From positions 126,308 through 190,307 of the forward strand of contig JBEKYR010000007.1 in the NCBI GenBank assembly GCA_049510745.1: a stretch of DNA of 64,000 bases. Direction: 5' to 3'. A model generated the notes under the pieces. The model worked only from the letters and a program-made list of their open reading frames with translations, was not told where the DNA came from and searched no databases. Positions within the stretch are counted from its first letter, which is position 1; each line of letters begins with the position of its first letter. Source of the DNA: Verrucomicrobiota bacterium. GTDB lineage: Bacteria > Verrucomicrobiota > Verrucomicrobiia > Limisphaerales > Palsa-1400. Below, piece after piece: positions 18,438 to 51,481 of this stretch. Both the position numbers and the translations under genes were made by a program.

Positions 18438-20030
18438 TCAATCGACCTTCTCGAAATAGCAAAGATCGCCATAATCGACCGGCAATGAGAACTTGCCGGG
18501 GCCTGCGTAGTGCTTTCCGTCGAAAGCCTTCCATTGGCCGGCGGGAAGGATCACCTCACGCGAGCGGGCGCCTTTTTCCAAGACCGGCGCGACGAGGATC
18601 TGATCGCCCATAAAGAACTGATCGTTGACCCGTTCGTAGCCTTGATGCGGGAAAACATACTCCATCGGCCGAACCGCAGGCTCGCCGGTCGAAGCCGATT
18701 GACGCACCAGGCGGAGAATATAGTCGATGTGCGCCTGGCGGACCTGAATGGCTTTGAGGACCGCTTTGAGGTGCGGCGGGTCGAGGACGCGCCACGGGGC
18801 CACCGAGAATTGCATCATCGGCATGAGGGCGTGGCATTGGGCGGAACGCACCACCAATTCCTGGTCTATGGTAGATGCCGATTGAAACGATTGGTATTCG
18901 CCGCCGCCGATCATGTCAGGGCAGGAGAAAGGGTAGCCCATCAACCCCGCCAGGATCATGTTGGGAACGAGCTTGCGCAGATCGGTCCAGGAGTGGGCCT
19001 TGTCGCGCAGGCGCTCGGCCAGGGGCTGTCCGCCCATTTTCCACATGGCGCGATATTCGTTCAGTGGGTATTGGAGGCCAATCTTCCCATAAAGCTCGGA
19101 TTGAGTATTTGGCGAGATGAGCCTGGAAGCGATCACACCCTTGTAGAAAGAGCTGTCGCCACCATCGAATTTGAAGCCATCGACTTGATAGGCCGATTGC
19201 AGATAGTCCAGGCGCGCACAAAACCAGGCCACCGCCTGCGGGTTCGAAAAGTCGAGCAAGGCGCTGTAGCCATTCCACCACTTGATGGAGGCAGCGGCGC
19301 CGGAAGGGTCCTTCAAGAGGAGGTTGCGCCTGGCCAGGTCTGGGTAAGCGTCGGAATTGGTGGCGACGAAAGGGCAAACCCACAGCATCACCTTGAAGCC
19401 ACGCGCATGCAGGGTGTTGATCATTCCCTTGGGGTCGGGAAACTTTTCTCTTTTAAAATCCCATTGCCCGTAGTTCTGCTGCCAGTTGTCGTCAACCATC
19501 AGAACTCCGGGAGGAAACCCGTTCATCTCAAGGCCTTGGACGTATTTCAAGATGTCGGCCTGGTTTTGATTGTACATCAGTTCTATCCAGGTGTTGTATT
19601 GGGGCGCCAGAAATAACAGTTCGTCGGGCGCCTTGCCAGCCGGGGGAAAATAGGTCCGGCTGGCGTAGCGAAACGCGTCGCGCAAGGATGAGCCGGCCTT
19701 GGCTCTGTTGACCCGGCCGCCCTTGGATTGGACGACCAGCCCATTCGGGGACAACCGAATGGCTATGGCGTCTTCAGACCAGATGACGTCGCCCTCGCTG
19801 GACAAGAGCAAGGGTTGCCCTTGGTTTCCGTAGGTGTCGCCGCTCAGGTCTGCCTGGTAACCGCAGGCCAGCGGCATCTGGGAACCTTGATCAATGATCC
19901 CTGCCCACCAGCAGGCCTGCGGCGAAACGGCTACCTCGACGCAACTCGTCTGGGTGGCCGGCAAGGGATCGGCCGGGGCCGGGGACGGCAGGAGCGCCAA
20001 GGCCAGCAGTGGAGACAGCCAGTCTTTCAT
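18438..20030 (-). CDS. Secreted GH31 glycoside hydrolase (MYORG/NET37-like branch, probable alpha-galactosidase)
   Basis: Signal peptide; PQYNTWIEL, MVDDNWQ, DGFKFDGG (nucleophile), CPDMIGGG (acid/base), MMQFSVAPWRVL, LVAPVL. Confidence 0.9.
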   Translation of the reverse strand: MKDWLSPLLALALLPSPAPADPLPATQTSCVEVAVSPQACWWAGIIDQGSQMPLACGYQADLSGDTYGNQGQPLLLSSEGDVIWSEDAIAIRLSPNGLVVQSKGGRVNRAKAGSSLRDAFRYASRTYFPPAGKAPDELLFLAPQYNTWIELMYNQNQADILKYVQGLEMNGFPPGVLMVDDNWQQNYGQWDFKREKFPDPKGMINTLHARGFKVMLWVCPFVATNSDAYPDLARRNLLLKDPSGAAASIKWWNGYSALLDFSNPQAVAWFCARLDYLQSAYQVDGFKFDGGDSSFYKGVIASRLISPNTQSELYGKIGLQYPLNEYRAMWKMGGQPLAERLRDKAHSWTDLRKLVPNMILAGLMGYPFSCPDMIGGGEYQSFQSASTIDQELVVRSAQCHALMPMMQFSVAPWRVLDPPHLKAVLKAIQVRQAHIDYILRLVRQSASTGEPAVRPMEYVFPHQGYERVNDQFFMGDQILVAPVLEKGARSREVILPAGQWKAFDGKHYAGPGKFSLPVDYGDLCYFEKVD

Positions 20031-20078
20031 TTGGAATGGGGGTGGGCGCCGGCCGGGCCGGCGCCCCAGCCAACTCAA

Positions 20079-21665
20079 CTACTGATGAAACAGGGCAAAG
20101 AAACAATTCGTGGGCGCGTAACCAAAGGCCGCTTCGAGGGCGGACTGGCTGATGAGGGTCATGCGTTCGGTGCCGGCCACGCTCAACCAGCCTGTCGCGG
20201 CGGATGGCAGGCTCAACCACTGGAAGCTTCCAAGACTGTTCTTCAGATTGTCCGTCGCGTACAGATTGGTGTAGCCCGCGTCCGGCAGCGACCAGGTGAC
20301 CGAGTATTTCCCATCCGCCGGGGTGATCAAGATACCGTTGACGTCGGCCGCATTGAGCGCCCAAGTATTGGAGTCAAGCACGGTGAATTTATCGTCGATG
20401 CCACCGGCCGAGCCGGCGATGGTGACGCGGCTGAGTGTGGAAGACTGCCCGATGTTCCCATTGGCGGTCGGCTCCGATCCGAAATAGGCGTAGAGCGGGT
20501 CCGCAAAAAGCGCCGCGTCCGCGGCGGGCATGCTGAAGTTTGTGCTCGTTCCGTTCGGCGAGGTAATGGTGACGTTGGTATTGTTGTTAAAGCTCAGGCT
20601 CCACTTTCCCACGGGGCCGGAACTATTGGTTACCGTCACCACTGAAACCAAGGTTCCGTCGGAGGGATCGTTGACCTTGTATCCGAATTGGCCGATGGCC
20701 GAGTTGTTTGTCGTCACGCTGACATAGAATTCCACCACGTCCCCCGAATCCCAATCAATGCTATCGTCAATCACGGGGCCGATCATTCCCGCCTGGGGCA
20801 CAAGGTAGAATTGGGTTTGAAATCCAGCGTAATTGGCGCCGGGACAAGCCGCGATGGTCATGGAATAGGTCGTGGTGTTGGAGACGGCCGTGGCGGTGTT
20901 CCAGGAATAATTATTGCTGACGCTCGCGATCATCTGGCGCTGCCAGGTGCCGCCCGGCTGGCTGGCGATGCACGTCAAACCCGCCGGAGGCGCCGGTGAA
21001 ATGGAGAGGCTTGGCCGATTGGTGTGAACGGTGGCCGGCGCCGTGAACACAATATTATCAATCCAATAATTGACAGTATTGGTGTAGGTTCCGCTGCCGT
21101 TGGAGATAAAGCCGATGACCGCTTCGCTATAAGTGCCGGCCGGGATGCCCGAGAAGTAGCCGGTAAAGTGCTGCCAGCCGTTGGTGGCGGCCAGCGGAGC
21201 CCAGCCCACCACGTTTTGCCACGGATTGTTGACAATCAACTCGATGGCGCCGTAGCTTCCATCCAGCGCGGGGAACGAATGGGCGACATCGACCTTTATA
21301 TCCACGTCGAAAGCTATGTAATCCGAGGAGTTGAAAGTCCCGCCGGTGGAAAAGGCTAATTGAACGTCATTCCAACTCTGGTTCCAATTGGGGTCGGTCA
21401 TGAGCGGCCAGTTCACCGTCAGGTACATGGAGCCGCTGTTAGTGTTGCCTTCTGAATCCTGATTAGGATCCCAGACTTCAGCGTAGCTATAGGCGTAGCT
21501 TCTGAAGTTTTGCCAGTCGATGCCGCTGATGCCGGTGTCGAAACTGTTGACGATCAAGTCGTCGGCCACGGCGACGCGAACCGGACCGAGCAGCGCCAGG
21601 CCGGCGGCGGCGAAGAGAAGCCATTGTTGAGGAGTAGATTTGGGTCTCATATTTTGTGCTTTCAT
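20079..21665 (-). CDS. Secreted hypothetical protein with CBM-like N-terminal beta-sandwich
   Basis: Signal peptide; FDVDIKVD...GWQHF...YWIDNIVF; S/T/N-rich; ends CFFALFHQ. Confidence 0.7.
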   Translation of the reverse strand: MKAQNMRPKSTPQQWLLFAAAGLALLGPVRVAVADDLIVNSFDTGISGIDWQNFRSYAYSYAEVWDPNQDSEGNTNSGSMYLTVNWPLMTDPNWNQSWNDVQLAFSTGGTFNSSDYIAFDVDIKVDVAHSFPALDGSYGAIELIVNNPWQNVVGWAPLAATNGWQHFTGYFSGIPAGTYSEAVIGFISNGSGTYTNTVNYWIDNIVFTAPATVHTNRPSLSISPAPPAGLTCIASQPGGTWQRQMIASVSNNYSWNTATAVSNTTTYSMTIAACPGANYAGFQTQFYLVPQAGMIGPVIDDSIDWDSGDVVEFYVSVTTNNSAIGQFGYKVNDPSDGTLVSVVTVTNSSGPVGKWSLSFNNNTNVTITSPNGTSTNFSMPAADAALFADPLYAYFGSEPTANGNIGQSSTLSRVTIAGSAGGIDDKFTVLDSNTWALNAADVNGILITPADGKYSVTWSLPDAGYTNLYATDNLKNSLGSFQWLSLPSAATGWLSVAGTERMTLISQSALEAAFGYAPTNCFFALFHQ

Positions 21666-21701: not shown

Positions 21702-23291
21702 TTACTGCGAACCGACCACTCGGTAAAATCGCGCCGCCGCGGAAGCTCCGTCGGTGACACTCCATTGCGATGTGCTGGTATTCGTTTCCAGGAAGGGAAT
21801 CCATTCCATAAAATCGGAGGATTCCTCTACGGTCCAAATGCCAGGGGTCGCGTTGTTGACGTTGAGGTCGAAACCTGTCGGGGAAATAGCTCCGTTCAGC
21901 GAGGGCCGGGCGGGAGCGGAGACAACCGAAAACCCTCCCAAAGTCAGCCAGCCGGGCAGGATGGCGTCTTGGGCGGCATTGGCGAAGCGCAATGGCACTC
22001 CGTTGGTCAGTGGATTTTGCACGGCCAACAACAATTTGTATTGGCCAGTGGCCAGGCCGTGATTGGTCTGGCTCCAAATCCAGAGCGTGCTGGTCTGTGT
22101 CGGGAGAAGAGACGAGAGCTTCCAAGTTGTCGTCCAAGTCTTGACAAGAGCGTTGCTGGAGGCCAGCGCGCCCAATTGCACGGGCCAGTCGTAGTAGAAT
22201 GGCGCCACTCCCGTGTTCCAGACTTGCACACTGACGTTGAGCGGTCCCGATACGGACGCGTCCACCACCGTGGCGTTGGAGACATAGAGGCTATAGCCCA
22301 AAAGGCAGCTTCCAGCCAGGGCCAGGGCCTGTTGCGCCCCGGAGAAACCAGGGTCGAAGACAGACTGGTTCAACATCCACGAAGCATGGGTGAGGGCGAC
22401 ACAATTGGTAAAATCCTGTCCGGTTGGCACGCAGTTCGTCTGCGTCAGGTCCCACATGCAGGGTTGGTTGGGGGGATAAACCTCGCCCCCAATGGGCTGG
22501 GTGAGCCACTTGTTCGTTTCACCCGCCGCCTTCAACAATCCCAGGAACATCCAGCCTGGCGGATCAATGGTTTGATAGGCGAACGAATCATCATGGTAGC
22601 CGATCAACCTCGCCAACGGGTTGGTGCCCGAGGGCCAGCGCACCAGAAGCTTGGTCTTGGAAAAGGCCGCACCGTACGCGTTCAGGACTTCGTCCTGGAC
22701 CGCCGTCGAGGCAAACCAGTTGGTGTGCGGATAAGTATGCCATTCGCCCCAAAAGCCGAGCAAACCAACCGTGATGAAGCCGATGCGAGGATCGCCGTCG
22801 TAACGCGCCCCTAACGCTCCGATAAAATTGGTCAACGCCTGTTGCAAAAGGGCGTTGCTATAGTCCGGGCAGACGCTCACGCCGTTATTGCCGTAGTCTG
22901 TGTAACTATATGTTGCCAGTCCGGCGTCCAGAAGGTACTGCGGTATGCCAGTCGGGAGGGTGGGATAATCCAGATAGACGCGAAAGACCGTTTGGTGTCC
23001 GCGGCCAGCGTCGCTGCCGAGCAGGGCATCCAGGCTGGCCCAGTTGAAGTTCGTTGACCCGGTCATCAACGAGCGCAGCGGCAGGTAGCTCCACTCCATG
23101 CTGTAAGGGAAGGTGCTGTAGCTGCCGGTATAAGGCATGAACCCTTTGAGCGGGTTGTTCGTCGGCGTGGCCGAGGGCGCCAGCATGTAGGAATTAGTAG
23201 TCCCCGCCGCGCCGATGGCCGCGGCCAGCGACAGGACCCCGATAAGCATCCGGGCCACGCGACGGACAATTTGTGGAGCCACGGTTTGCAT
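21702..23291 (-). CDS. Secreted DUF4832-type putative glycoside hydrolase with C-terminal RFYR domain
   Basis: NNPLKGF, VGLLGFWGEWH, YHDDSF, PIGGEV, LGY, NTGVAPFYYDWP; ends ARFYRVVGSQ. Confidence 0.8.
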   Translation of the reverse strand: MQTVAPQIVRRVARMLIGVLSLAAAIGAAGTTNSYMLAPSATPTNNPLKGFMPYTGSYSTFPYSMEWSYLPLRSLMTGSTNFNWASLDALLGSDAGRGHQTVFRVYLDYPTLPTGIPQYLLDAGLATYSYTDYGNNGVSVCPDYSNALLQQALTNFIGALGARYDGDPRIGFITVGLLGFWGEWHTYPHTNWFASTAVQDEVLNAYGAAFSKTKLLVRWPSGTNPLARLIGYHDDSFAYQTIDPPGWMFLGLLKAAGETNKWLTQPIGGEVYPPNQPCMWDLTQTNCVPTGQDFTNCVALTHASWMLNQSVFDPGFSGAQQALALAGSCLLGYSLYVSNATVVDASVSGPLNVSVQVWNTGVAPFYYDWPVQLGALASSNALVKTWTTTWKLSSLLPTQTSTLWIWSQTNHGLATGQYKLLLAVQNPLTNGVPLRFANAAQDAILPGWLTLGGFSVVSAPARPSLNGAISPTGFDLNVNNATPGIWTVEESSDFMEWIPFLETNTSTSQWSVTDGASAAARFYRVVGSQ

Positions 23292-23314: not shown

Positions 23315-24127
23315 TTACTGCGGCGGCGGAATCGTGGCGGGAGTCACCCAGTTCTTGTGCCAATTGATGCTCCACAGATTTTGCAATTTTTGTGGATTGG
23401 CATGGCCGTCCATGTACGCGATGTCAATTCCCCCGGTGAGTTGGGGGCTTGATGTGATGTTCCTGGGCGCCGCGCCGGGCGCAAGCCCGAGATGCCGCGC
23501 CACAGTGTATCGTCCCATAAATGTGTTATCGCTTCCGTTGTATAAGTCTTTGGCGGGGCCGTCGGTTTCCTCCGGCCAGCCATCAACCCAGACCGCGTCC
23601 GCAAAGAGCGGCGTGGTTGAGGGCAGGTTGACGCTGGCCTCCGAATCGTACTTCCAATCGTCGGACGCGCCTACAATCACATCGGCAACGGAATAATTGC
23701 CGGTATAGAGCCAGCCGTTGTAACCATAGCTGCCGGTGAAATTGGTCTTGAACGGATACCATTGCCACATTTGATCGGCGGCGCCAAAAGTGTATTGCGG
23801 GCTAAGGATGGTGCGAGTCGTGGGAGTGCTGGCCAGGGGACAGACCCGGGCGGAGTTGACTTTGGCGTAATACGTCAGCAACGTATTCATCCACAGATTC
23901 TCGTCTTCGCTGTACTGGAATGACTTGCCTCGGAAATCGCCCAGATACATGGCATGGGCCAAGCCCATTTGCCTCAGGTTGCTGACACACCGGGTATTTT
24001 GGGCCTTCAGTTTCGCGCTCGACAGAGCCGGCAAAAGCAGCGAGGCCAGGATGGCGATGATGGCGATCACCACCAACAGTTCGATGAGCGTAAACGCCCG
24101 CCACCGCAAATCTCTTTTCATTTTCAT
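23315..24127 (-). CDS. Prepilin-type N-terminal cleavage/methylation protein with H-X9-DG-type C-terminus (paralogue 1)
   Basis: [44 protein letters not shown]...YMDGH; start ATG 24127 (track ORF over-extended). Confidence 0.92.
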
Positions 24128-24304: not shown

Positions 24305-27300
24305 ATGAAAACTGCCGTGACACCGCCGGGATCGCAGGCGTTGGTTCCATGGCGCGCCTCGGTTCTGGCGGTCTGGATTTGTTGTTGCATGGGCGTGCGC
24401 CTTGAGGCGCAGAACGCCCTCTCGCCGACACCGTCCCAATTCATGATCAAGGCCTGGTCCATGCCCGACGGATTGCCGCACCTCTCGGTCACGGCGCTGG
24501 CGCAAACCGCCGACGGTTACATCTGGGTCGGCACTCTGGCCGGGTTGGCCCGCTTTGATGGGGTGCGCTTCAAAGTGTTTACGCCCCAGAATTGTCCGGA
24601 GCTGCCCCGCAGCCGGATTGGCGGACTGTTCCAAGGACCCGATGACACGCTGTTCATCGCCACCGAGCGCGGGGGCGGTTTAGTCGCGCTTCGGGCCGGC
24701 CGATTCGAGCAGTTGCTTGGTTCCGGGAACGAACAGGATGAGATCGTGACTTCGTTGACAGAGGCGGCGGGTGACACCTTGTTTGTGGCGCGATCCGGCG
24801 CCATCTGGCGTTGGTCCCGCGGAAACTTGACCGCCCTTTGCACCAACCGCGCCTTCTATCCGGTTTCTCCGGACCATGTGTGCCAAGATACGCGGGGCCG
24901 GATCTGGATGGTTAGCCGGGCCGACGAGGCGGGACGATTGCTCTGTTTTGATTCGGGCCGGCTGGAGCCTGTGGCGCTGCCGGAGGCCCTGAGCGGCGGG
25001 CAGATTCACGCCCTGGCCCGGGATGCGGCTGGTCAAATCTGGCTGGGCGCCTCGCGCGGGCTGGCCGTCTTGCGAGGAGATCGATTTGAACCGGTCCAAC
25101 TGCCGGAATTTGGAACCAACGTCAGTATCAAGGACCTGGCAGCCTGCCGCGACGGCGCATTGTGGGTGTGCGGCGCCAATCACTGGCAGCGGAAATTCAA
25201 GGCCGGACGCTGGATGAACGCGACCAGCCAGGTGGGCGGCGTGCAAACCTCGCTCGCACCACTGGGCGAAGACCGTTGGGGAAATCTCTGCCTGGGCCGT
25301 TTTCCCGAAGGCTACATCACCGTTTCGCAGGACGGAACGGTGACGAGGATCGACTCGGCTGAGGGACTGCCCGGCACGACGGTTTCCTGCCAGTTGACAG
25401 ACCGTGAGGGCAACCAGTGGTTGGGACTCGTTGACGGAGGGCTGGCGCAGCTTCGGCCGCGCCGCTTCAGCATGTTGGGCGGGCTGGCCTTGACCACGCC
25501 GGTCTATTCCATCTGCGAAGATCACCAGGGATGCATTTGGGTGGGCAGCAGTTTCGGCGGCGTTTACCGATTCCGGGGAACCAACATGACCCGTTATGGC
25601 GCCAGCGACCTGCCGCTGACGGACATCTGGTCGTTGTTCGAGGACAGTCAATCCAATTTATGGGTCGGCACATCCTCGCACGGCGTGTATCAGTTTCACG
25701 ACGGCCGTTTCAAGCCCATGTTTGACAGAACGCAGATTTCCGACCGGGTGGATGCGATCCACGAAGACCGGCAGGGGCGGCTCTGGTTCGGGCATTGGAG
25801 CGGCCTGGCGTGCTATGCCAATGGACAGCTGACGCGGATTGCCATGCCGTGGGCCTCGGACGATTGCGAGGTGGTAGCGATCGCTTCGGACAAGAAGGAG
25901 CGGCTCTGGCTGGGCACCAAGGGCGCGGGCCTGTTCTGCCTGAGCCAGGGGAAGTTTACCTCTTACACAACCGCCAACGGCCTGCCCAGCAACCTGGCCT
26001 GGTCCCTTTTTGTGGATCGCGACGACACGTTGTGGATCGGCACGGCGGACGGCGGATTGACGCGCTTGCGGGAGGGCCAGTTGGCCAATTTCACGGCGCG
26101 GGACGGCCTGCCTGACACCACGGTTTGTCACATTACCGAGGATGCCAGCCAGCGCCTCTGGTTGGATTCGCCCCACGGAGTTTTTTCGGTGGCAAAATCG
26201 GCCCTGGAAGCTTTCGTGCGAGGCCAGACGGAGGGCTTTTCCTGCGTCACCTATGATCAGACCGACGGGATGTTGAGCAGTTCCTGCACCTGCGCTTTTC
26301 AACCTTCAGGCTGCCAGACGCGCGATGGCCGGCTGCTCTTTCCTACGCTCAAAGGCGTTGTCGTGGTGCGCCCGGACAGGGCCGATGCCAACACCCTGCC
26401 GCCGCCGGTCCTCATTGAAGAAGTGGCCGTGGAGGACCACGATTACGACATGACACGCCGGGCCAACTTGACCGTGCCCGCGGGCAAAACCCGCCTCGCC
26501 ATACGCTACACTGCGTTGAGCTATGCGGCGCCGGAGAAAGTGCGCTTCAAGTATCGGATGCTGGGCCTGGATTCGAACTGGACGGACGCCGGCGCCAAAC
26601 GGGCTGTGGACTATCCCTACCTGCCGCACGGGCGCTACAAATTCCAGGTGCTGGCCTGCAACAACGACGGCGTCTGGAGCGCGCAAGGAGCCAGTTTTGA
26701 TCTGATCATTCCACCCCGCTTCTGGCAAACGTGGTGGTTTCTCGGTTTGGCCTTGCTCGGCAGCGGCGCCAGCATCGCGCTGACCGCGCGGGGCATGGAA
26801 AAAGCCAAGGCACAACGGAGATTGGAACGCGAGCAACAGGCGCGCATGGTTGAACTGGAACGGGCGCGCATTGCCCGGGATTTCCACGACGACGTCGGGT
26901 CCCGCCTGACCCATGTCATTGTGTTGAGCCAACTGCTCAAGGAGGACAAAGCCAGGCCCAGCGAAGTCGAGGCCCACGCCGCCATGATTGGCCATACGGC
27001 GCGCCATGCAGTTCACGAACTGGGCACCATCATTTGGGCGGCCAACCCGCGCAACGATACGCTCGACGGCCTGGTGCAATATATCAGCCAGTATTCATAC
27101 GACTTTTTCCTGGCCACACCGGTGGCGTGTCACTTGGATTTGCCGACGGAGGTCCCGGCCCTGCCTCTGACGGCCGAGGTCCGGCACAACCTATTCATGG
27201 TCGTGAAGGAGGCGTTGCACAACATTCTCAAGCACTCCGGCGCCGCCGAAGCCCGCCTGAGCTTGAAGCTGCAGGATGGAGTCCTCGAAATTCGCGTCGA

Positions 27301-27469
27301 AGATAACGGGTGCGGCTTTCAAGCCGGGCGCGCCACAGCCAGTCAGCGCAATGGTCTGGCCAACATGCGTCACCGGCTCGAAGTCATCGGCGCGTCGCTG
27401 CGCATCGAAAGCCAACCAGGCGCCGGAACTTCCATTCAAGCCCGGCTCCCATACCCGCCGGCAAAATGA
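24305..27469 (+). CDS. Sensor histidine kinase: Reg_prop beta-propellers, Y_Y_Y, TM, HisKA_3, HATPase
   Basis: GLP..V..L..D..G.LW.GT repeats, [47 protein letters not shown]. Confidence 0.93.
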
Positions 27470-27506
27470 ACCCTGACAACCAACAGCCGGCCAGATTGAC
27501 AAAGTT

Positions 27507-28133
27507 ATGAGCATTCGAGTCGCCTTGGTGGAGGACAATGATGATCTCCGGCAGAGCATGAAAAGCCTGCTCAACAGATCCTCGCGCCTCCGCGTGGTCG
27601 CCGACTACCCCGACGCCGAGTCCGCCCTGGCCGACCTCGTCCGGCATAAGCCGGAGGTCGTGCTGATGGATGTCAAACTGCCAAGGATGGACGGCGTGGA
27701 GTGTGTCCGGCTCCTCAAAGGTCTTCTGCCGACAGTGCTTATCCTCATGTTGACAATCCATGACGACAACGATTCGCTGTTCAACTCAATCCTGGCTGGG
27801 GCCGACGGCTTTTTGCTCAAGGACACCGTTCCCTCACGGCTGGTCGAAGCGATCGAGGAGGTGCGCCACGGCGGCTCGCCCATGACCCCGCAGATCGCCC
27901 GCCGCATTGTCCAGCGCTTCCGCAAGAGCGATGCCGTGCCAGCTGACGTGGAGAATCTGACCCCGCGCGAGCGCGAAGTGCTCGAACAACTGGCCCTTGG
28001 CAACCGCTACAAGGAAATCAGCGACCGGCTGGGCGTCAGTTTGGACGGCATCCGCTTCCACATTCGCGGCGTGTACAACAAATTGCACGTCCACTCCAGA
28101 ACGGAGGCGGTCGTCAAATACCTGAAGCGGTAG
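27507..28133 (+). CDS. NarL/LuxR-family response regulator
   Basis: LVEDN, VLMDVKLP, GFLLKD, LTPREREVL, YNKLHVHSRTEAV. Confidence 0.95.
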   Translation: MSIRVALVEDNDDLRQSMKSLLNRSSRLRVVADYPDAESALADLVRHKPEVVLMDVKLPRMDGVECVRLLKGLLPTVLILMLTIHDDNDSLFNSILAGADGFLLKDTVPSRLVEAIEEVRHGGSPMTPQIARRIVQRFRKSDAVPADVENLTPREREVLEQLALGNRYKEISDRLGVSLDGIRFHIRGVYNKLHVHSRTEAVVKYLKR

Positions 28134-28795: not shown

Positions 28796-28864
28796 GTTAA
28801 GTAGCAGGAATGATGAGGGATTGGAGGTCGGGAGGCGAGTCAAAAAAAGTTTCATTTTGGGCTG
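28796..28864 (+). repeat. Left ~69-bp inverted repeat (partner at 51541-51609)
   Basis: GTTAAGTAGCAGGAATGATGAGGGATTGGAGGTCGGGAGGCGAGTCAAAAAAAGTTTCATTTTGGGCTG; 4 mismatches to the partner's reverse complement. Confidence 0.92.
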
Positions 28865-28946
28865 GACAAAAGAGGGTGAGTTTGTTGCGTCGGGGTCACT
28901 TTTGTTCTTGCAGCATTCCCGAAACCGGCGATGCTAAAGCTGGCAC

Positions 28947-36467: not shown

Positions 36468-37331
<864 letters not shown>

Positions 37332-43622: not shown

Positions 43623-43696
43623 AGGAGCCACCCGGCAGGTTGAATTTGCAGTTGAAGTTTGGTAATTATAAATGAAAAGAGTAATTATAGGAATGA
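43619..43696 (+). repeat. 78-bp direct repeat with 45128-45205 (intergenic plus first codons)
   Basis: gtgaaggagcc.cccggc.ggtt.aatttgc.gttgaagttt.gt.att.taaATGaaaaga.taattataggaatga at both loci; MKRVIIGM versus MKRIIIGM. Confidence 0.9.
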
Positions 43697-45066
43697 CGTT
43701 TTGGCGTGTCATGAGAGTTGTCTGCTGGCTAAGCCTTGCAATCCAGGCCTCAATCGCCGCCACCACTGAACGCTTGTTCCAGCAGTCTGAAAGTAATTTA
43801 ACCAATCCCGAGCGCGGTTTTTATTCGCCGCAGACGACGGCACGGATGAGAGGACTGGCACAGTTGCGGGAGCAAGGCGTCAGTCTCGTTCTCGTGGAAA
43901 TGGACTTGCGCGCATTCAAAGAGCGCGAACTAACGCGGGAAAAGCTGGATGAATTGCGCGCCGCGTTTGCGGCGGCGCGGCAAGCCGGGTTGAAAGTCAT
44001 CTTTCGCGCCGCTTACGGATTCACCGACCGCGATTACCGGGCTGACCCGAGGGACCTTCATCGCATTCTCGGCCATATTGGCCAAATTGGCATAGTATTG
44101 ACTGAAAACGCGGATACGCTGTTTGCGGTCCAGGCGGGGTTTCTCGGTCCCTGGGGCGAATGGCACGGATCCAATTGGGGCGACCCTCCCAGTCTCGACG
44201 TCCGACGCGCCATGCTCTTCGGGCTTTTGGATTCTGTTCCGGCGCCGATCCCGATTCAGGTTCGGCGACCGATGTTCATCCGCGACATTTTTGCGACCGA
44301 GCCGGGAGGCCTCGACTCCACAGACGCGGCGGCCTTTGGCGGTTCCAGACTGTCCCGCGTCGGCTGGCACGACGACGCATTTCTGGCACTGCCCGACGAC
44401 ATGGGCACGTATGTCGAGCCGGCTTGGGATCGCGAACGGGAATTGCGCTGGTGCGATCAGCACGACCGTTACGTCCCTTTCGGCGGCGAAACGGTCGGTC
44501 CTTCCGGACCAACGCCTATCGAACAAGTCGTGCGCGAAATGGAATTGCTCCACCTCTCTTACTTGAACATTGCGTACCATCCGAAAACTCTGCAACGCTG
44601 GCGTGAATCGCAATTCCGCGGGCAAGACGCCTTCGGATACATCGAACGCCGCATCGGCTATCGCTTGGTCGCTCAGAAACTTCGTTATTCGACCGAGGCG
44701 CGCGCTGGCGGCCAGTTGTCTTTCGAACTCACGCTGACAAACGCAGGCTTTGCCTCGCCACAACTGCCGCGCGTTTTCACCGTCGGATTAATTCACGGCG
44801 CCCGGATAGAGCGTCTGGCGCTGCACAATGTCGATCCGCGCCAATGGGGACCGTGGTCGGGGAATATTATTGTGCGCGGCGAGATGCCAATCCCAAACAA
44901 TTTCATTGACAATGGAATGGCCGAGCTTGCCATTCAACTGGCCGATCCCTCGCCGCGATTGAGGAATGACGGACGCTACGCCATTCGTCTTGCGAACGAC
45001 GGCGTGCCGTTTCTGGAAAAGGAAGGCTGGAATATTTTGGCTGGGGACATCGCCATCCATCGCTGA
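43672..45066 (+). CDS. Secreted DUF4874+DUF4832 putative glycoside hydrolase
   Basis: NPERGFY, IFRAAY, QAGFLGPWGEWH, GWHDDAFLA, FGGET, IGYRL, NAGFA. Confidence 0.85.
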   Translation: MKRVIIGMTFWRVMRVVCWLSLAIQASIAATTERLFQQSESNLTNPERGFYSPQTTARMRGLAQLREQGVSLVLVEMDLRAFKERELTREKLDELRAAFAAARQAGLKVIFRAAYGFTDRDYRADPRDLHRILGHIGQIGIVLTENADTLFAVQAGFLGPWGEWHGSNWGDPPSLDVRRAMLFGLLDSVPAPIPIQVRRPMFIRDIFATEPGGLDSTDAAAFGGSRLSRVGWHDDAFLALPDDMGTYVEPAWDRERELRWCDQHDRYVPFGGETVGPSGPTPIEQVVREMELLHLSYLNIAYHPKTLQRWRESQFRGQDAFGYIERRIGYRLVAQKLRYSTEARAGGQLSFELTLTNAGFASPQLPRVFTVGLIHGARIERLALHNVDPRQWGPWSGNIIVRGEMPIPNNFIDNGMAELAIQLADPSPRLRNDGRYAIRLANDGVPFLEKEGWNILAGDIAIHR

Positions 45067-45180: not shown

Positions 45181-47205
45181 ATGAAAAGAATAATTATAGG
45201 AATGATATTTGTGGCGCACCTCTTGTCCGTTCACGCGGATGAAAACCAGGGCCGGTTGGAAAATAGCGCCCTCGCCTGGCAGTGGAATTTATCATCGGGC
45301 AAATTGGCGTCCACTCTAAATGACAAAGCCGATGGAACCTTGCTCAACATCAACAGCGAATGTTTTCAATTGGTGTTGGGGGACGGGAGAACAATTAAAG
45401 CCTCCGACTTCAAGCCGGTCAGAGCGCCGCGCACGGAAGAGTTGCCGGCAGAACCGGAGTCACTTGCTGTGGCGCGCCATTTTGCAGGCAGGCAAATGGT
45501 CTTGGAAATTTCAGATGCCCGGGATCATCTGGTTGCAAGCTGGAAGGCGAGTCTGCGCGAAGGATCAACCTACCTGCAGCAGGAACTGACACTGCGGGCG
45601 AGTGGAGGAGAGGTTTGGATCAAGGAGATTGTCTTGTTTGACCAGCGGGTGCCGGGGGCAAAAACAGTGGGGTTTGTCGATGGATCGCCGCTGGTGGCGG
45701 ACACATTTTTTTGCGGTTATGAGCATCCCATGGCGCAGAACATTGTTGCAGGGGATCATTTTGTGCGATGCTGTTTGGCGCGTAACGCGACGCTCAAGGA
45801 CGGAGAGACGCTCGTTCAGAGTTTCGTGCTGGGAGTGCTGCCCCACCACCAGGCGCGGCGCGGTTTCCTCGCTTACCTCGAGCGGGAACGCGCCCGTCCC
45901 TACCGGCCGTTTCTCCATTACAATTCCTGGTTTGACATTGCCTGGGACAAGCGCAAGTTCAACGAGGCGGAGAGTCTCAACGCCATTGAACAGTTTGGCC
46001 GCCAACTGGTGCAGGAGCGCGATGTGCAGATGGATTCTTTCCTTTTTGATGACGGCTGGGATGACAACAAATCACTTTGGAAGTTTCATGCCGGTTTCCC
46101 CAACGGCTTCACATCCTTGAAAACGGCCGCTGCCAAGTATCACGCCGGCATCGGCGTGTGGTTGTCTCCGTTCGGCGGTTATGACGAAGCGAGGAGACAA
46201 CGATTGAAGTATGCCAGTCAATTTGGTTATGAAACCAACTCCAGTGGTCTTTCACTGGCTGGCCCAAAATACTATCAACTCTTTCATAACATCTGCCTGC
46301 AAATGATTCAAAAGTATGGTGTCAACCAATTTAAATTTGACGGCCTGGCCGCCGGGGTCAAGGCAAACCAGGACGGTTTGACGCGCGATGGCGATGCCAT
46401 GCTGCGGCTGGTGGCGGATTTGCGCGCCACGGATCCCGACATTTATATCAACCAAACCACCGGCACCTGGCCTTCTCCGTTCTGGCTGCTTTATGTGGAT
46501 TCAACCTGGCGGGGCGGGGACGATCATGACTTTCAAGGCAAAGGATCCTGGTGCCAGCAGTGGATGACTTATCGTGACGCGCAAACCTATGACCACGTGG
46601 TAAAAGCAGCGCCACTATATCCGCTCAATGCCCTCATGTTGCACGGCATCATTTACGCGACGAACGCGCTTCATCTTGCCGCCATGACCGGAAAGGAATT
46701 TGCCGACCAAGTCCGCGCATTTTTTGGCAGCGGCACGCAATTGCAGGAATTATACATCACGCCCAGCCTGTTGAACCAGCAAAACTGGAACGATCTTGCC
46801 GAAGCCGCCACATGGTCGCGTCGGAACGCGGATGTGCTCGTGGACACGCATTGGATTGGCGGCGATCCCGGCAAAGGCGATGTTTACGGCTGGGCTTCAT
46901 GGGCGCCGCACAAGGGCATTTTGGTGTTGCGCAATCCCAGCGACAAACCCGCCGCGTTTGCGGCGGACCTCGAAACATTGTTCGATTTCCCGCCAGGTTC
47001 ACCCGAAGTTTTCCAGCTCAAAAGCCCGTGGAAGGACGGTGGGGAATTGGCGCCATTGGAAATATCCGCCCACCAGCCGCACACATTCAATCTTCGTCCG
47101 TTTGAAGTGATCGTCCGTGAGGCGAAACCCATTTCCGGCAGCGGCCAGTCGGCGACGGGCCTGCCGGGAGCTTCAGGCTCGCTGAAAACTTCCGCTCTCC
47201 AGTGA
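45181..47205 (+). CDS. Secreted clan GH-D-like (GH36/GH27-related) alpha-galactosidase or alpha-galactosaminidase candidate
   Basis: PFLHYNSWFD, FLFDDGWD, GVWLSPFGGY, FKFDG (nucleophile-type), DSTWRGGDD. Confidence 0.75.
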   Translation: MKRIIIGMIFVAHLLSVHADENQGRLENSALAWQWNLSSGKLASTLNDKADGTLLNINSECFQLVLGDGRTIKASDFKPVRAPRTEELPAEPESLAVARHFAGRQMVLEISDARDHLVASWKASLREGSTYLQQELTLRASGGEVWIKEIVLFDQRVPGAKTVGFVDGSPLVADTFFCGYEHPMAQNIVAGDHFVRCCLARNATLKDGETLVQSFVLGVLPHHQARRGFLAYLERERARPYRPFLHYNSWFDIAWDKRKFNEAESLNAIEQFGRQLVQERDVQMDSFLFDDGWDDNKSLWKFHAGFPNGFTSLKTAAAKYHAGIGVWLSPFGGYDEARRQRLKYASQFGYETNSSGLSLAGPKYYQLFHNICLQMIQKYGVNQFKFDGLAAGVKANQDGLTRDGDAMLRLVADLRATDPDIYINQTTGTWPSPFWLLYVDSTWRGGDDHDFQGKGSWCQQWMTYRDAQTYDHVVKAAPLYPLNALMLHGIIYATNALHLAAMTGKEFADQVRAFFGSGTQLQELYITPSLLNQQNWNDLAEAATWSRRNADVLVDTHWIGGDPGKGDVYGWASWAPHKGILVLRNPSDKPAAFAADLETLFDFPPGSPEVFQLKSPWKDGGELAPLEISAHQPHTFNLRPFEVIVREAKPISGSGQSATGLPGASGSLKTSALQ

Positions 47206-47378: not shown

Positions 47379-48275
47379 ATGAAACCAACGTTGTTAGTAT
47401 TAGCCGCCGGGATGGGCAGCCGTTACGGGGGCCTTAAACAAATGGATCCCGTCGGACCGAGTGGCGAAACGATCATTGATTATTCGATTTACGACGCCTT
47501 GCGCGCCGGTTTCGGCCGACTCGTCTTTGTCATCCGCAAAGACATCGAAGAGCAGTTCAAGGAATTTGTCGGCACACGTTTTGAAAAGCACATTGCGGTG
47601 GAATATGTTTTCCAGGAACTCGACAAACTGCCGCCGGGCTTTTCCGTTCCGCCGGGCCGCGCCAAACCGTGGGGAACAGCGCACGCGGTTTTAATGGCGG
47701 CGGACGCTGTCCGCGAGCCTTTTGCCGCGATCAATGCCGACGATTTTTACGGCCCGCAATCCTACCGCCTGCTCGCGCAACACCTGCAATCCGGCAGCGC
47801 GGATCAGGCGATGGTCGGATTCACTTTACGCAACACCCTTTCGGACTTTGGCAGTGTCGCGCGCGGCATTTGCCAGCTGGATAACAGGGATTATCTTCGA
47901 ACCGTGGTTGAACTGACGAAGATCGAACGCGACGGTGCGGGCGCGAAAAACACGGATGCCGCCGGCCAAATCACCAAGCTCACCGGCGACGAGGTGGTCT
48001 CGATGAATTTCTGGGGGTTCACGCCGACAGTGTTTGTCCAGTTGAAAGCTCGGTTCGCTGAATTCCTCAAGAACAACAGCAGCCACCTCAAGTCCGAATA
48101 TTACATCCCCAGCGCAGTGAACGAATCGGTCATTGGCGGACAATGGCGCGTGAAAGTTTTGCGCACGAACGATTCGTGGTTCGGCGTGACGTATCGTGAG
48201 GACCGTCCGCGCGCGATCGAAAGCATCCGCACACGAATCGCCAGCGGTGATTATCCCGAAAAACTTTGGCCATGA
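47379..48275 (+). CDS. Sugar-1-phosphate nucleotidyltransferase
   Basis: LAAGMGSRYGGLKQ, KPWGTAHAV, INADDFYG, VSMNFWGF, WFGVTYRED. Confidence 0.9.
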   Translation: MKPTLLVLAAGMGSRYGGLKQMDPVGPSGETIIDYSIYDALRAGFGRLVFVIRKDIEEQFKEFVGTRFEKHIAVEYVFQELDKLPPGFSVPPGRAKPWGTAHAVLMAADAVREPFAAINADDFYGPQSYRLLAQHLQSGSADQAMVGFTLRNTLSDFGSVARGICQLDNRDYLRTVVELTKIERDGAGAKNTDAAGQITKLTGDEVVSMNFWGFTPTVFVQLKARFAEFLKNNSSHLKSEYYIPSAVNESVIGGQWRVKVLRTNDSWFGVTYREDRPRAIESIRTRIASGDYPEKLWP

Positions 48276-49357
48276 ACTCAAAGCATGATGTGCGCGCCGT
48301 CGCGCGCCAATTTCACATCCTTGGCGAATTTTTGACCGCCGAGCCTTACGGCAGCGGCCACATCAACGACACTTACTGTGTGGTTTTTGATCAAGGTGGC
48401 CTGCGTGTGCGCTACATTGTTCAGCGCATCAACCACGCAATCTTCAAAAATCCCGTCGCGCTCATGGAAAACATCCAGCGTGTGACAGAGCACCTCGGCC
48501 AGAAATCCGCCGGTCAATCCGATCAAAGCCGCCGCGTGCTGACCTTGATTTCGGCGTCCGACGGCAAACGCTATTATTGCGACCAGGCGGGCAATCACTG
48601 GCGCGCCTATATTTTCATCGAGAAAGCGCGGACATTCGACGCAGTCGAGTCCGCGCCACAAGCATTTCAAGCCGCAAAGGCGTTCGGACAATTTCAGAAA
48701 CTTCTCGCCGACCTGCCCGCGCCGCGACTTTACGATACAATTCCAGATTTTCATCACACGCCCAAACGGTTTGCCGCGCTGGAAAAGGCGATTGCAGCCG
48801 ACGCCTTCAACCTCGCGAAACTGGCAAAACCGGAAATTGAATTTGCCTTGAACCACAAGGCCATCACCGGCGTCCTGCTCGACGCAAAATTGCCGGAGCG
48901 CGTGACGCACAACGACACGAAATTCAACAACGTGATGATCGAGGACGCGACCGGCGAAGGAATTTGCGTGATTGATTTGGACACCGTGATGCCCGGACTG
49001 GCGCTCTACGATTTTGGCGACATGATTCGCACGGCGACCAGCCCGGCGCAGGAAGACGAGCGTGACTTGGCGAAAGTGCGCATGCAATTTCCAATGTTCG
49101 AGGCGCTGGTGCGCGGCTACCTCACAACGGCTTCCGAATTCTTAACGCGGGCAGAAAAACAATTTCTCGCTTTTTCAGGCGAACTGATCACCTTTGAAAT
49201 CGGCGTCCGCTTCCTGACGGATTTCCTTGAGGGCGACACTTATTTCAAAGTCCACCGCGAAGGACACAACCTCGACCGCTGTCGCACACAATTCAAACTG
49301 GTCGAGTCCATTGAGCAACAGGAAGCGGCCATGAACAAACTGGTGGAGACCATTTGA
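48272..49357 (+). CDS. N-acetylhexosamine 1-kinase-like phosphotransferase (APH fold)
   Basis: GSGHINDTY, QRINH, TIPDFHHTP, HNDTKFNN, VIDLDTVMPG, DFGD, RFLTDFLEGDTYFK; ATGA overlap with the upstream gene. Confidence 0.85.
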   Translation: MNSKHDVRAVARQFHILGEFLTAEPYGSGHINDTYCVVFDQGGLRVRYIVQRINHAIFKNPVALMENIQRVTEHLGQKSAGQSDQSRRVLTLISASDGKRYYCDQAGNHWRAYIFIEKARTFDAVESAPQAFQAAKAFGQFQKLLADLPAPRLYDTIPDFHHTPKRFAALEKAIAADAFNLAKLAKPEIEFALNHKAITGVLLDAKLPERVTHNDTKFNNVMIEDATGEGICVIDLDTVMPGLALYDFGDMIRTATSPAQEDERDLAKVRMQFPMFEALVRGYLTTASEFLTRAEKQFLAFSGELITFEIGVRFLTDFLEGDTYFKVHREGHNLDRCRTQFKLVESIEQQEAAMNKLVETI

Positions 49358-49358
49358 A

Positions 49359-50279
49359 ATGAAAATTTTAGTCACCGGCGGCGCCGGTTTCATCGGCAGC
49401 CATATCGTCGAACATTTTCAAGGCCGCGCTGAAGTGCGCGTATTGGACAATTTGTGTTCCGGCTTCAAGCGCAACCTCGCCTGCTTCCATCACGAGTTCA
49501 TCGAAGGCTCGATCCTCGACCGCGAACGGGTGCGCCGCGCGGTGCGGGACGTGGATTATATTTTTCATCTGGCGGCAATGATCAGCGTGCCGGAGTCCAT
49601 GCAAAAACCAATTGAATGCACGGAAATCAACACGACCGGCACGCTCGTTGTCCTGGAAGAAGCGGCGAAAGCAAAGGTGAAGAAACTTGTTTTGAGCAGT
49701 TCAGCCGCGATTTACGGCGATAATCCGATCACGCCAAAACTGGAATCGATGTTGCCGGAACCGAAAAGCCCCTACGCTGTCACGAAGCTCGACGGAGAGT
49801 TTTACTGCAAGATGTTCACCGATGAAAGTCGCATCCAGACCGTCTGCCTGCGCTACTTCAACGTGTTCGGTCCGCGTCAGGACCCGAAGAGCCAATATGC
49901 CGCCGCCGTCCCAATTTTTATTGACCGGGCGGTGAAGAACGAGGCGGTCACGATTTACGGTGACGGCGAACAGACGCGGGATTTTGTTTTCGTGAAAGAC
50001 GTTGTCGCGGCAAACATCTTTTTTGCGACACAATCCAAGGTGAGCGGCGTATTCAACGTGGCCTACGGCCAACAAATGACCATCAACCACCTGGCCAATA
50101 CGATTTGCCGCTTGACCGGCTCGCGTTCCGAAATCAAATATGCTGCCGAGCGTTTGGGCGACGTGAAACATTCCGTGGCATCCGTCCGAAAATTACGCGA
50201 TGCCGGTTTTGCCCCGCTCAGCAACTTTGAGGATGGCCTGCGGGCCACCATTGATTTTTTTGTGGGAAAGCAAGCATGA
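49359..50279 (+). CDS. UDP-HexNAc/UDP-glucose 4-epimerase (WbpP-like extended SDR)
   Basis: TGGAGFIGSH, HLAAMISVPES, SSAAIYG, YAVTK, RYFNVFGPRQDP, GDGEQTRDF. Confidence 0.88.
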   Translation: MKILVTGGAGFIGSHIVEHFQGRAEVRVLDNLCSGFKRNLACFHHEFIEGSILDRERVRRAVRDVDYIFHLAAMISVPESMQKPIECTEINTTGTLVVLEEAAKAKVKKLVLSSSAAIYGDNPITPKLESMLPEPKSPYAVTKLDGEFYCKMFTDESRIQTVCLRYFNVFGPRQDPKSQYAAAVPIFIDRAVKNEAVTIYGDGEQTRDFVFVKDVVAANIFFATQSKVSGVFNVAYGQQMTINHLANTICRLTGSRSEIKYAAERLGDVKHSVASVRKLRDAGFAPLSNFEDGLRATIDFFVGKQA

Positions 50280-51481
50280 ATGCCGTGAGCAAAGACCCGG
50301 AAAAGGCTCCGGCTTCTCAACGATTGACGTCATTGGATGCCTACCGCGGCTTGGTCATGTTGTTGATGATGGCTGAAGTGCTTCAATTTTGGAGGGTGGC
50401 GCGGGCTTGCCCTGGCAGCGGGTTCTGGCAGTTTCTTGCCCGTCAGCAAACTCACACGGAATGGATCGGTTGCACGCTCCATGATTTGATCCAGCCATCA
50501 TTTTCATTTTTGGTTGGGGTGGCGTTGCCGTTTTCACTGGCCAGTCGCGCGACGCGCGGCCAGTCTCATGGACAGATGGCCTGGCACGCCCTGTGGCGTT
50601 CACTGCTGTTGATTCTGCTGGGCGTTTTTCTGCGATCTATCGGCCGGTCCCAGACTTATTGGACTTTCGAAGATACATTGACCCAGATTGGACTGGGTTA
50701 TTTCTTTTTGTTTCTTTTGGGATTTCGATCTGTGCGCTGGCAATGGGCCGCGCTGGGATTGATTTTGGCCGGATACTGGGCTGCTTTTGCACTCTACCCG
50801 GCGCCGCCTTCAAGTTTTGACTACTCACAGGTCGCGGTGGCCAAAGATTGGCCACACCTGTTGGCTGGCTTTGAGGCCCACTGGAACAAAAACAGCAATC
50901 TGGCCTGGGCTTTCGACGCATGGTTTCTCAACCTCTTTCCCCGCGAATCGAAATTTATTTTCAACGAAGGGGGTTACGCCACCTTGAGCTTCATTCCCAC
51001 GCTTGGAACGATGGTTTTGGGTTTGATTGCCGGAGGAGTGCTTCGAAGCAACCGCAATTCATGGGATAAGGTAAAATGGCTGCTCCTCGCCGGGGGTTTG
51101 ACCCTGTTGGCGGGTGCGGCGCTGGGCTGGCTGGGAATTTGCCCCGTTGTAAAGCGCATCTGGACACCAAGCTGGGTTCTCTTTAGCGGCGGTTGGTGTT
51201 TTCTCATTCTGGCTGCATTTTATGTGCTGATTGATCTCTGGAACTACAAAAGTTGGGCATTTCCGCTGGTCATCATCGGCACGAATTCCATCGCCGCTTA
51301 CTGTATGGACCACCTCTTTGAAGATTTTCTTCAGCAAAATCTGGCAACGCATCTTGGAACGCGTTTCTTCGAACTTTTCGGCAAGGCCTATACACCGTTG
51401 TTTCAGGGCGCATTGAGCCTGCTTGTTTTGTGGCTATTGCTTTTTTGGATGTATCGGCGAAAATTGTTTTTGCGAATTTAA
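50276..51481 (+). CDS. HGSNAT/NagX (DUF5009)-like membrane acetyltransferase
   Basis: RLTSLDAYRG, HDLIQPSFSFLVG, VKRIWTPSWVL, GTNSIAAY, MYRRKLFLRI; many TM helices; ATGA overlap. Confidence 0.85.
   Translation: MNAVSKDPEKAPASQRLTSLDAYRGLVMLLMMAEVLQFWRVARACPGSGFWQFLARQQTHTEWIGCTLHDLIQPSFSFLVGVALPFSLASRATRGQSHGQMAWHALWRSLLLILLGVFLRSIGRSQTYWTFEDTLTQIGLGYFFLFLLGFRSVRWQWAALGLILAGYWAAFALYPAPPSSFDYSQVAVAKDWPHLLAGFEAHWNKNSNLAWAFDAWFLNLFPRESKFIFNEGGYATLSFIPTLGTMVLGLIAGGVLRSNRNSWDKVKWLLLAGGLTLLAGAALGWLGICPVVKRIWTPSWVLFSGGWCFLILAAFYVLIDLWNYKSWAFPLVIIGTNSIAAYCMDHLFEDFLQQNLATHLGTRFFELFGKAYTPLFQGALSLLVLWLLLFWMYRRKLFLRI

Follow-up and report, generated by a model that had tools for sequence, protein, structure and literature searches.

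The DNA analyzed here (the window) is a stretch of 64,000 nucleotides of contig C7 (JBEKYR010000007.1) from the genome of a Verrucomicrobiota bacterium of the order Limisphaerales (5.6 Mb, completeness 94%), and carries a 33-kb gene cluster whose predicted substrates are biofilm polymers of α-1,4-linked galactosamine (GalN), N-acetylgalactosamine (GalNAc) and galactose. The cluster can be divided in two modules (Table 1, in which genes are named by their first position in the window). The left module (18438-28133) includes, in this order, the genes encoding a GH31 enzyme, a protein resembling a carbohydrate-binding module, the hydrolase DUF4832a and a prepilin-type protein, all of them divergent from the genes of the first sensor kinase and its regulator. 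The right module (28947-51481) includes DUF4832b, a GH135 enzyme, the second kinase/regulator pair, pilin B, an 896-residue binding-type protein, pilin C, enzyme 41373, DUF4832c, enzyme 45181, a nucleotidyltransferase, a kinase, an epimerase and NagX. The left module is predicted to be a galactose arm, and the right one a galactosamine arm. A first-pass annotation of the window had described these genes as a candidate complete utilization system; the proteins are encoded by intact open reading frames (ORFs) at the coordinates it gave, and the two-module layout, the pilin-like genes, a common binding-type domain and an inverted-repeat boundary go beyond it.

Table 1. Features of the cluster and of its boundaries, in window coordinates
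Feature	Coordinates	Strand	Basis or remark
GH31 α-galactosidase, N-terminal signal-like sequence; predicted exo-α-1,4-galactosidase	18438..20030	-	PF01055, E 4e-33
Secreted non-catalytic β-rich protein, predicted glycan binding	20079..21665	-	CBM_6 weak, 19.7 bits, under cut-off
DUF4832a TIM-barrel hydrolase, C-terminal FYRV tail; predicted to act as endo-enzyme in the left module	21702..23291	-	PF16116
Prepilin-type (N-methyl) protein A	23315..24127	-	PF07963
Two-component system 1	24305..28133	+	Propeller/Y_Y_Y sensor kinase 24305-27469; LuxR regulator 27507-28133
Inverted repeat, left arm, 72 nt	28796..28867	.	93% complementary to 51538-51609; flanks right module
DUF4874+DUF4832 hydrolase b	28947..30623	+	PF16173 + PF16116 above cut-off
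GH135 (Sph3-like), predicted endo-α-1,4-N-acetylgalactosaminidase + IxIDG domain + FFRL tail	30746..32245	+	PF12138
Two-component system 2	32480..36401	+	Sensor kinase 32480-35614; LuxR regulator 35772-36401
Prepilin-type protein B	36462..37331	+	PF07963, weak SBP_bac_10/DUF1559; then partial duplicate of the 3' end of response regulator 2, 37337-37570
Non-catalytic secreted protein with two IxIDG domains, Ig domains and an FFRL tail; predicted polymer binding	37610..40300	+	896 aa
Prepilin-type protein C, directly upstream of 41373	40444..41304	+	PF07963
PelA/GH191-like TIM barrel (residues ~39-386; D224/E291) + FN3 + IxIDG + FFRL tail; predicted endo-α-1,4-galactosaminidase	41373..43622	+	Model and profile
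DUF4874+DUF4832 hydrolase c	43672..45066	+	Pfam above cut-off
Clan-D-like glycosidase; predicted exo-α-galactosaminidase or N-acetylgalactosaminidase	45181..47205	+	Atlas features, motifs
Nucleotidyltransferase, predicted UDP-HexNAc pyrophosphorylase	47379..48275	+	PF00483; single copy in genome
N-acetylhexosamine 1-kinase (NahK)	48272..49357	+	PDB 4ocu E 1.1e-79, full-length homology to solved kinases
UDP-Hex(NAc) C4-epimerase	49359..50279	+	PF01370; WbgU E 8e-54, WbpP E 1e-50, UDP-Glc 4-epimerase E 2e-62
NagX/HGSNAT-like membrane amino-sugar N-acetyltransferase	50276..51481	+	NF046061; six hydrophobic segments
Inverted repeat, right arm	51538..51609	.	Overlaps end of integrase-like remnant ORF 51540-52094

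The GH135 assignment of 30746 in the first-pass annotation was borne out by the Spherulin4 model (E 3.7e-41; 141.7 bits, cut-off 30.2), and the alignment with PDB entry 5c5g (E 7e-9) places D119, E120 and E174 on D166, E167 and E222 of Sph3, whose catalytic roles are described in the available part of PMC10485009. From its sequence, 30746 is a GH135 member with predicted endo-α-1,4-N-acetylgalactosaminidase activity; one table row in the accessible portion of PMC11653725 lists a bacterial GH135 against the fungal polymer galactosaminogalactan (GAG). Enzyme 41373 had been called GH114/PelA-like, and of this proposal only the PelA part stood. GH114, a family that is grouped with fungal cell-wall degraders in an excerpt of PMC7922503, was rejected: the whole protein has no Pfam GH114 match, the domain reaches 18 bits against a PF03537 cut-off of 27, and the same model matches 22 of the 92 rows of the family alignment at E<=0.01. 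Searches of the PDB with phmmer and a shallow profile gave no catalytic-domain match, and a 92-row profile of the N-terminal domain retrieved PelA structures with E values from 1e-5 to 7e-5. D224 and E291 fall on PelA D160 and E218, and the FLDTxD and ES motifs align with those of 5tcb with a spacing of 58 residues; D224 is invariant and E291 is conserved in at least 90% of the 92 rows.

The first full-length model of 41373 was poor (predicted local distance difference test, pLDDT, 56.6) and its fold searches were dominated by the FN3 domain; the model of the catalytic domain reached a pLDDT of 96.3. The top structural matches of the latter were GH191 enzymes (Z 24.1, root-mean-square deviation, rmsd, 3.0 over 257 aligned residues; and Z 23.1), followed by PelAh (Z 22.5, rmsd 3.1, 248 aligned), the GH168 fucanases (Z 19.8) and Ega3 (6oj1; Z 19.0, rmsd 2.9, 230 aligned), a modified TIM barrel that ranked under GH191 and PelA; Foldseek agrees. 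Identity to GH191 is 17-22%, and the family's own profile does not retrieve GH191 among PDB sequences. The fused deacetylase domain of PelA is absent from 41373, whose C-terminus consists of FN3, IxIDG and tail. Because identity to members of the GH191/GH166/GH114 structural group is only 16-22%, the modeled domain probably represents an as yet unclassified family within it; 41373 is matched by 335 representatives, and its nearest named relatives are mostly Verrucomicrobiota records.

Two families left unplaced in the first-pass annotation lead to the same sugars. The three DUF4832 proteins that it listed (21702, 28947 and 43672) all score above the cut-off. DUF4832c has no useful match among PDB sequences; it resembles six DUF4832 proteins of Bacillota (23-28% identity, E 1e-17 to 1e-28), of which five are encoded in pelF/pelG loci, and DUF4832b is 21-24% identical to the DUF4832 proteins of two Bacillota pel loci. 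According to PMC12345266, SIR_1591, a barrel plus DUF4832 protein encoded within a pel operon, disrupts aggregates of the bacterial polymer Pel, and DUF4832 occurs in Gram-positive pel operons (PMC7112168, partial text); the DUF4832 type of the cluster, an N-terminal barrel followed by DUF4832, is likened to SIR_1591 through the pel-cluster members, with which it has the WGE/GE motifs in common, and not directly. DUF4832a carries WGEWH and GGE motifs, and its type is widespread, with some match in 131 of 301 genomes of the order. In the left module, the Pfam match of 18438 agrees with its earlier GH31 label, and this protein shows full-length homology to 8j50, a 'GH31 alpha-galactosidase' (E 5.4e-176; 8j53, E 8e-147), with both catalytic Asp motifs (FKFD and CPDM) aligned; the specificity of 8j50 and 8j53 is presumably α-1,4-galactobiose.

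The second of these families is that of 45181, previously called GH-D-like. This label is favored by Atlas features (GH36/melibiase clusters, 0.96), by the DDGW and FKFD motifs, and by a weak profile match to TtGalA (6lcj, E 0.19) in which DDGW and K.D are aligned; it gained nothing from Pfam, where neither the Melibiase hidden Markov model (HMM) nor any other gave a match, or from PDB sequences, where no useful match was found. In databases, the large family of this protein goes under the name 'enterotoxin' or Ast. In Klebsiella aerogenes the homologue (36%) closes the GalNAc (aga) operon, downstream of agaR-kbaZ-PTS-nagA-agaS-kbaY (PTS, phosphotransferase system; family members at L100 8962-10851 and L099 9001-10791), and the one of Escherichia coli lies a few kb from agaR and remnants of kbaZ/kbaY. 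The enterotoxin label may hide a glycosidase. A top-scoring 45181-type gene is present in all seven genomes with a strong 41373-type gene and in 11 of the 301 genomes of the order.

The amino-sugar operon noted in the first-pass annotation comprises four genes, those of the nucleotidyltransferase, NahK, the C4-epimerase and NagX, that likely encode a Leloir-type salvage route. KbaZ was not found in the genome, nor was AgaS with the K. aerogenes query, so that GalNAc would enter metabolism through NahK, nucleotidylation and C4 epimerization. Eleven loci have 45181, and in four of them (L023, L024, L025 and L027) the NagX gene directly follows it, which suggests that acetylation of GalN is coupled to exo-cleavage, in either order. 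Elsewhere in the genome, on contig C11, there is a major facilitator superfamily (MFS) transporter gene whose product is 73% identical to a cluster-linked MFS protein of a relative. A PIG-L gene on contig C6 was considered as the missing deacetylase and rejected, because its similarity to the PIG-L linked to the cluster in L025 is only 25%; GH109 and L025-type PIG-L were not found in the genome with the queries used. A divergent ROK-like protein recurs in the amino-sugar operons of relatives (L024 15520-16893, L125 15050-16432, L129 7051-8856), often beside a PIG-L deacetylase; its homologue in this genome (53%) is on C6.

Both sensor systems consist, by Pfam, of a Reg_prop/Y_Y_Y kinase and a LuxR regulator, as expected from the two two-component systems reported before. 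Prepilin A is 62-65% identical to the other two of the cluster and at most 39% to further paralogues over long alignments. The IxIDG domain (180 residues) occurs in four copies in three cluster proteins (30746, 37610 and 41373) and nowhere else in the genome; fold searches with a poor full-length model, dominated by FN3, gave no clear fold for it and are uninformative on its novelty. The Atlas leads of 37610 were unnamed clusters (0.92-0.93) and Glucodextran_C (0.91), and a relationship between 20079 and 37610 was discarded since their sequences are not similar. The tail [FY][FY]R[LVIA] ends 103 of the 4211 long ORFs of the genome, a count made without a shuffled control, including 13972, 21702, 30746, 37610 and 41373; it is likely a secretion or anchoring module.

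Two observations argue that the co-location of these genes is more than chance. The sole GH135 match, the sole 41373-type gene and the sole 45181-type gene of the genome, as well as both of its DUF4874+DUF4832 genes, map to these 33 kb; in addition, other genera and families carry the gene set too. Matches to 41373 were obtained in 155 genome loci, of which the 79 best distinct ones were analyzed, many of them shorter than 20 kb or cut by contig ends. Among the 18 closest (L020-L036 and L043), homologues of 37610 are present in 16, pilin-like homologues of protein C in 15, 45181 in 11, a kinase (homologue of sensor kinase 2) in 10, NagX in 6, GH135 and the nucleotidyltransferase in 3 each, and NahK and DUF4832c in 2 each; in the 17 further loci (L037-L054 minus L043), DUF4832c lies beside the 41373 homologue in 7. 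L102/L103, the same DNA as L024, contain GH135, 41373, 45181, NagX, NahK, the nucleotidyltransferase and the epimerase in a different order. Relatives' cassettes add an MFS or SSF transporter, GH27, GH109, a PIG-L deacetylase, a member of the glucosamine-isomerase family, and LacI. GH135 is paired with the 37610 protein in L111, L114 and L115, where no 41373 homologue appears in the BLAST labels; L125 is a cassette with GH109 and no 41373 label, and several Verrucomicrobiales loci contain only 41373, DUF4832 and regulators.

For the left module, eight loci based on DUF4832a were compared: its genes are present in three (L116, L118 and L119), in part in one, and absent in four. In those three loci a homologue of 20079 (50-62%) lies between GH31 and DUF4832a, and two-component system 1 travels with the module; in L116 GH31 is split over two frames and the pilin gene was not seen in the ORF call. 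In genome G006, contig ends interrupt the gene of sensor kinase 1, with residues 1-959 on one contig and 999-1051 on another; each of these two contigs carries one module, which suggests the same module adjacency.

The right module is flanked by a 72-nt inverted repeat with no further copies elsewhere in the genome; the ORF at its right arm (51540-52094) is integrase-like as read from its translation, and has no Pfam match. The GC content of the module is 54.5% vs. 60.3%, and equally low windows are 2 out of 210 in the genome. Given its own inverted repeat and lower GC, the right module may have arrived as a unit. No inversion joint at the left repeat arm was seen in the contigs of four runs. 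The assembly between 16500 and 36400 is backed by a run of a separate study (X3), whose contigs tile end to end with 0 differences in six tiling pieces. Cluster DNA is present in peat and wetland metagenomes, and the dataset search listed no RNA dataset that carries it.

Other features were observed within and around the cluster. An ORF at the border of the left module (17144-18328) begins like a transposase, with weak HTH_21/HTH_32 matches, and continues into an unrelated tail; this module is flanked by a 20-nt inverted pair (18376-18395 and 28178-28197). Recent internal duplications comprise the partial copy of response regulator 2 after pilin B (91%, within 36221-37570), the starts of pilins B and C (82%), and the beginnings of 43672 and 45181 together with the sequence just upstream of each (88%; 43619-43701 and 45128-45210). 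A protein of 2935 residues with GH94/glucoamylase domains (52094-60901), which we take to be a cyclic β-1,2-glucan synthase, is outside the cluster in the relatives examined. The Rfam scan detected one tRNA gene only (63743-63814), and promoter and terminator scans added nothing.

Whether the locus belongs to a producer or to a consumer was approached through the pel genes. The absence of a GT4 synthase, Pel export genes and a deacetylase, reported in the first-pass annotation, was upheld by Pfam: no glycosyltransferase (GT), Pel export or deacetylase family was found among the 20 cluster proteins scanned. PelG and PelF models have no match in the genome (94% complete), which also lacks a DUF2194 deacetylase and an over-threshold GH114/PelA match; PelG was not found in five relatives. 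Among the 79 loci, pelF and/or pelG are in the flank of only nine, so that homologues do not consistently sit with Pel biosynthesis genes; all nine are among the 30 Bacillota loci, five also hold a DUF4832c homologue, and none of the 35 Verrucomicrobiota-type loci (L020-L054) has either gene, which supports the catabolic reading. The presence of pelF/pelG beside the Bacillota relatives ties the 41373 and DUF4832c families to Pel chemistry, with two uses. In a quick tree of the 41373 family, made with 72 of the 92 alignment rows (the locus rows plus the window, without the 20 protein-id rows; L072 was never in the alignment), one long supported branch separates all the pel-linked rows from the clade of the window; the order of events is not drawn from this tree. 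Several Bacillota pel clusters (L067, L072, L081, L082, L086, L090 and L093) have, along with a 41373-type hydrolase, a recurring protein of ~800 residues without Pfam match (e.g. L082:7330-9768), and some of them also hold Stealth and nucleotidyltransferase genes.

The scan of the 301 genomes of the order gave 27 matches to the 41373 profile, 7 strong (E<1e-150), 1 intermediate (G317) and 19 weak. Full-length or split PelG is present in 22/301 genomes, in none of the seven strong-type and in 18 of the 19 weak-type, and PelF was not found in the six strong-type genomes tested; G317 carries PelA and PelG, and the one weak-type match examined, in G317, is PelA beside PelB. Pel producers exist among relatives of the order, and the 41373 type does not depend on them. 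Most of the genomes with PelG (G039, G068, G099, G133, G317 and others) have a PelA-like gene, and Pel production seems to occur in the order.

Taken together, we consider it likely that the cluster senses, cuts and assimilates the α-1,4-linked GalN, GalNAc and galactose polymers of biofilms made by other organisms, i.e. fungal GAG and bacterial Pel, in a genome without pelF or pelG match. Four unrelated families converge on the same sugars: GH135, the PelA/GH191 fold, DUF4832 with its Pel-disrupting relative, and 45181 with its aga locus; two of these had not been placed before. The interpretation in the first-pass annotation is supported, and most of the conditions it had named as refuting did not arise. 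In the proposed mechanism, secreted, tail-bearing endo-enzymes would attack the polymer, with GalNAc stretches as the target of GH135 and GalN-rich ones as that of 41373, while the IxIDG domains and the 37610 protein would hold them on the substrate. The DUF4832 enzymes would shorten the chains further, and from the oligomer ends 45181 would free GalN or GalNAc, and GH31 galactose. Each sensor kinase would detect oligomers for its module, galactose-rich parts on the left and GalN/GalNAc on the right. Import would likely occur via the unlinked MFS transporter, and the pilin-like proteins may capture substrate. GalN would be acetylated by NagX at the membrane. From GalNAc, NahK would form GalNAc-1-P, the nucleotidyltransferase UDP-GalNAc and the epimerase UDP-GlcNAc. 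What was observed is the gene content, the domains and folds assigned, the conservation of catalytic residues and the neighbourhoods; from these we infer the activities, localizations and direction of flux.

Several results weigh against this interpretation. The cluster has no transporter gene, for which reason the term 'complete' was an overstatement. Of the 18 closest loci, only 3 have GH135 and only 2 the NahK gene; of the seven genomes in which the 41373-type match is strong, only 3 have GH135. The left module is present in G234 without a 41373-type match, and is on a separate contig in G300. Enzyme 41373 has low identity to characterized enzymes and its fold is also that of GH168 fucanases; one GH191 enzyme is inactive on GAG, according to the portion of PMC12054363 available. 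A Paraburkholderia homologue of 45181 lacks aga context, and the co-occurrence of 45181 is biased, as cluster-linked genes made up part of the alignment (A3) used for it. NagX matches NF046061 over its full length (E 1e-41) with 143 bits against a cut-off of 480, and has three paralogues. The epimerase and nucleotidyltransferase could equally make UDP-GalNAc for synthesis, and the finding of PelG in 0/7 strong-type genomes, at a base rate of 22/301, is at chance level and shows independence from pel, not exclusion.

Some of these results would fit a catabolic locus for another α-Gal/GalNAc glycan, such as a bacterial exopolysaccharide or O-antigen, an α-1,4-galactan or glycoprotein glycans, with modules that may differ in substrate: 41373 is unclassified with GH168 as the next fold neighbours, DUF4832a-type genes are far commoner than the cassette, the left module stands alone in G234, and the right one has its own inverted repeat and lower GC. 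We regard this as unlikely, since the GH135 catalytic residues are intact, the 41373 and DUF4832c families are both pel-linked in Bacillota, and the modules adjoin here and apparently in G006. It is still less probable that the enzymes break the biofilms or fungal surfaces of others in order to invade, disperse or compete, sugar uptake being secondary. Endo-enzymes of these families disperse biofilms (PMC10485009, partial text), the cluster lacks a transporter, and the Verrucomicrobiales loci with only 41373, DUF4832 and regulators would agree with such a role; nonetheless, the same operons retain exo-type enzymes, NahK, the nucleotidyltransferase and the epimerase, joined in relatives by transporters and deacetylases.

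We give the least credit, and very little, to a locus that trims or recycles a self-made GalNAc polymer produced by an unrecognized synthase, with the sugar operon supplying UDP-GalNAc. The 41373 and DUF4832c homologues in Bacillota pel clusters, the PelG genes of the order, a WbpP/WbgU-like epimerase and other GT4 genes in the genome speak for it. Nonetheless, the genome has none of the Pel and deacetylase matches looked for, no GT adjoins the cassette in the closest loci examined, and a 1-kinase acts on the free sugar.

The consumption of foreign GAG and Pel can be extended to a wider proposal, which we hold only tentatively and are inclined to doubt as a whole: a SusC/D-free, pilin-associated Verrucomicrobiota system that digests these polymers end to end, with 41373 as a new endo-α-1,4-galactosaminidase family, IxIDG as a new GalN/GalNAc-binding module, the 'enterotoxin'/Ast family as exo-α-galactosaminidase and a lysosome-like acetylate-then-salvage route, and that recycles fungal matrix and the Pel of its own order in peat. 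In the literature searched we found no GAG/Pel utilization locus and no description of GAG/Pel recycling in nature. A marine Pontibacter is reportedly able to degrade GAG, a report that our search did not confirm and that could lower the novelty. The cluster is a defined source of enzymes for cloning and assay, with candidates for a new glycoside hydrolase family, for a new binding module and for anti-biofilm use. It also suggests that a large 'enterotoxin'-annotated family consists of amino-sugar glycosidases, and is a test case for pilin-like proteins in glycan uptake in Verrucomicrobiota. Why bacteria carry so many endo-galactosaminidase families is left open in the available text of PMC12054363.

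Compared with known systems, the cluster shares hydrolase folds and catalytic residues with the GAG and Pel biosynthesis clusters (Sph3, GH135; Ega3, GH114; PelA, GH166; SIR_1591, DUF4832), and DUF4832 and 41373-type proteins are also in Gram-positive pel clusters (PMC7112168, in part); in contrast, it has no synthase, exporter or deacetylase, and adds exo-glycosidases, sensors, binding proteins and kinase salvage. The GH191 α-galactosaminidases (Env-GH191, 9ep5; TmGH191, 2aam/9eux; PMC12054363, same text) are structurally the closest to the 41373 domain (Z 23-24), whereas 41373 has longer insertions, the FN3, IxIDG and tail architecture and low identity. The polysaccharide utilization loci of Bacteroidota also gather endo- and exo-glycosidases, binding proteins, propeller/Y_Y_Y sensors and sugar catabolism genes, conserved across genomes; unlike them, the cluster has no SusC/SusD among its proteins, its kinases and LuxR regulators are split pairs, and it includes three prepilin-type genes, the Verrucomicrobiota C-terminal tail and a predicted substrate in microbial cationic matrix. 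The bifidobacterial lnp system, which includes NahK, is a Leloir-type GalNAc route, and here an orthologue of NahK and a C4-epimerase are likewise present; with the enterobacterial aga pathway the cluster has in common the 45181 family, which ends the K. aerogenes operon. It differs from both in that a PF00483 nucleotidyltransferase replaces the GalT-type enzyme, there is no PTS, KbaZ and AgaS were not found, and a NagX-like acetyltransferase is added. In the lysosomal heparan sulfate route HGSNAT acts before NAGLU, and a membrane acetyltransferase beside a candidate exo-α-hexosaminidase for a free-amine sugar is also found here, in this case bacterial and galacto-configured. Loci for glycan utilization are known as a kind; what had no description in the literature searched is the predicted substrate, the architecture and the enzyme families of this one.

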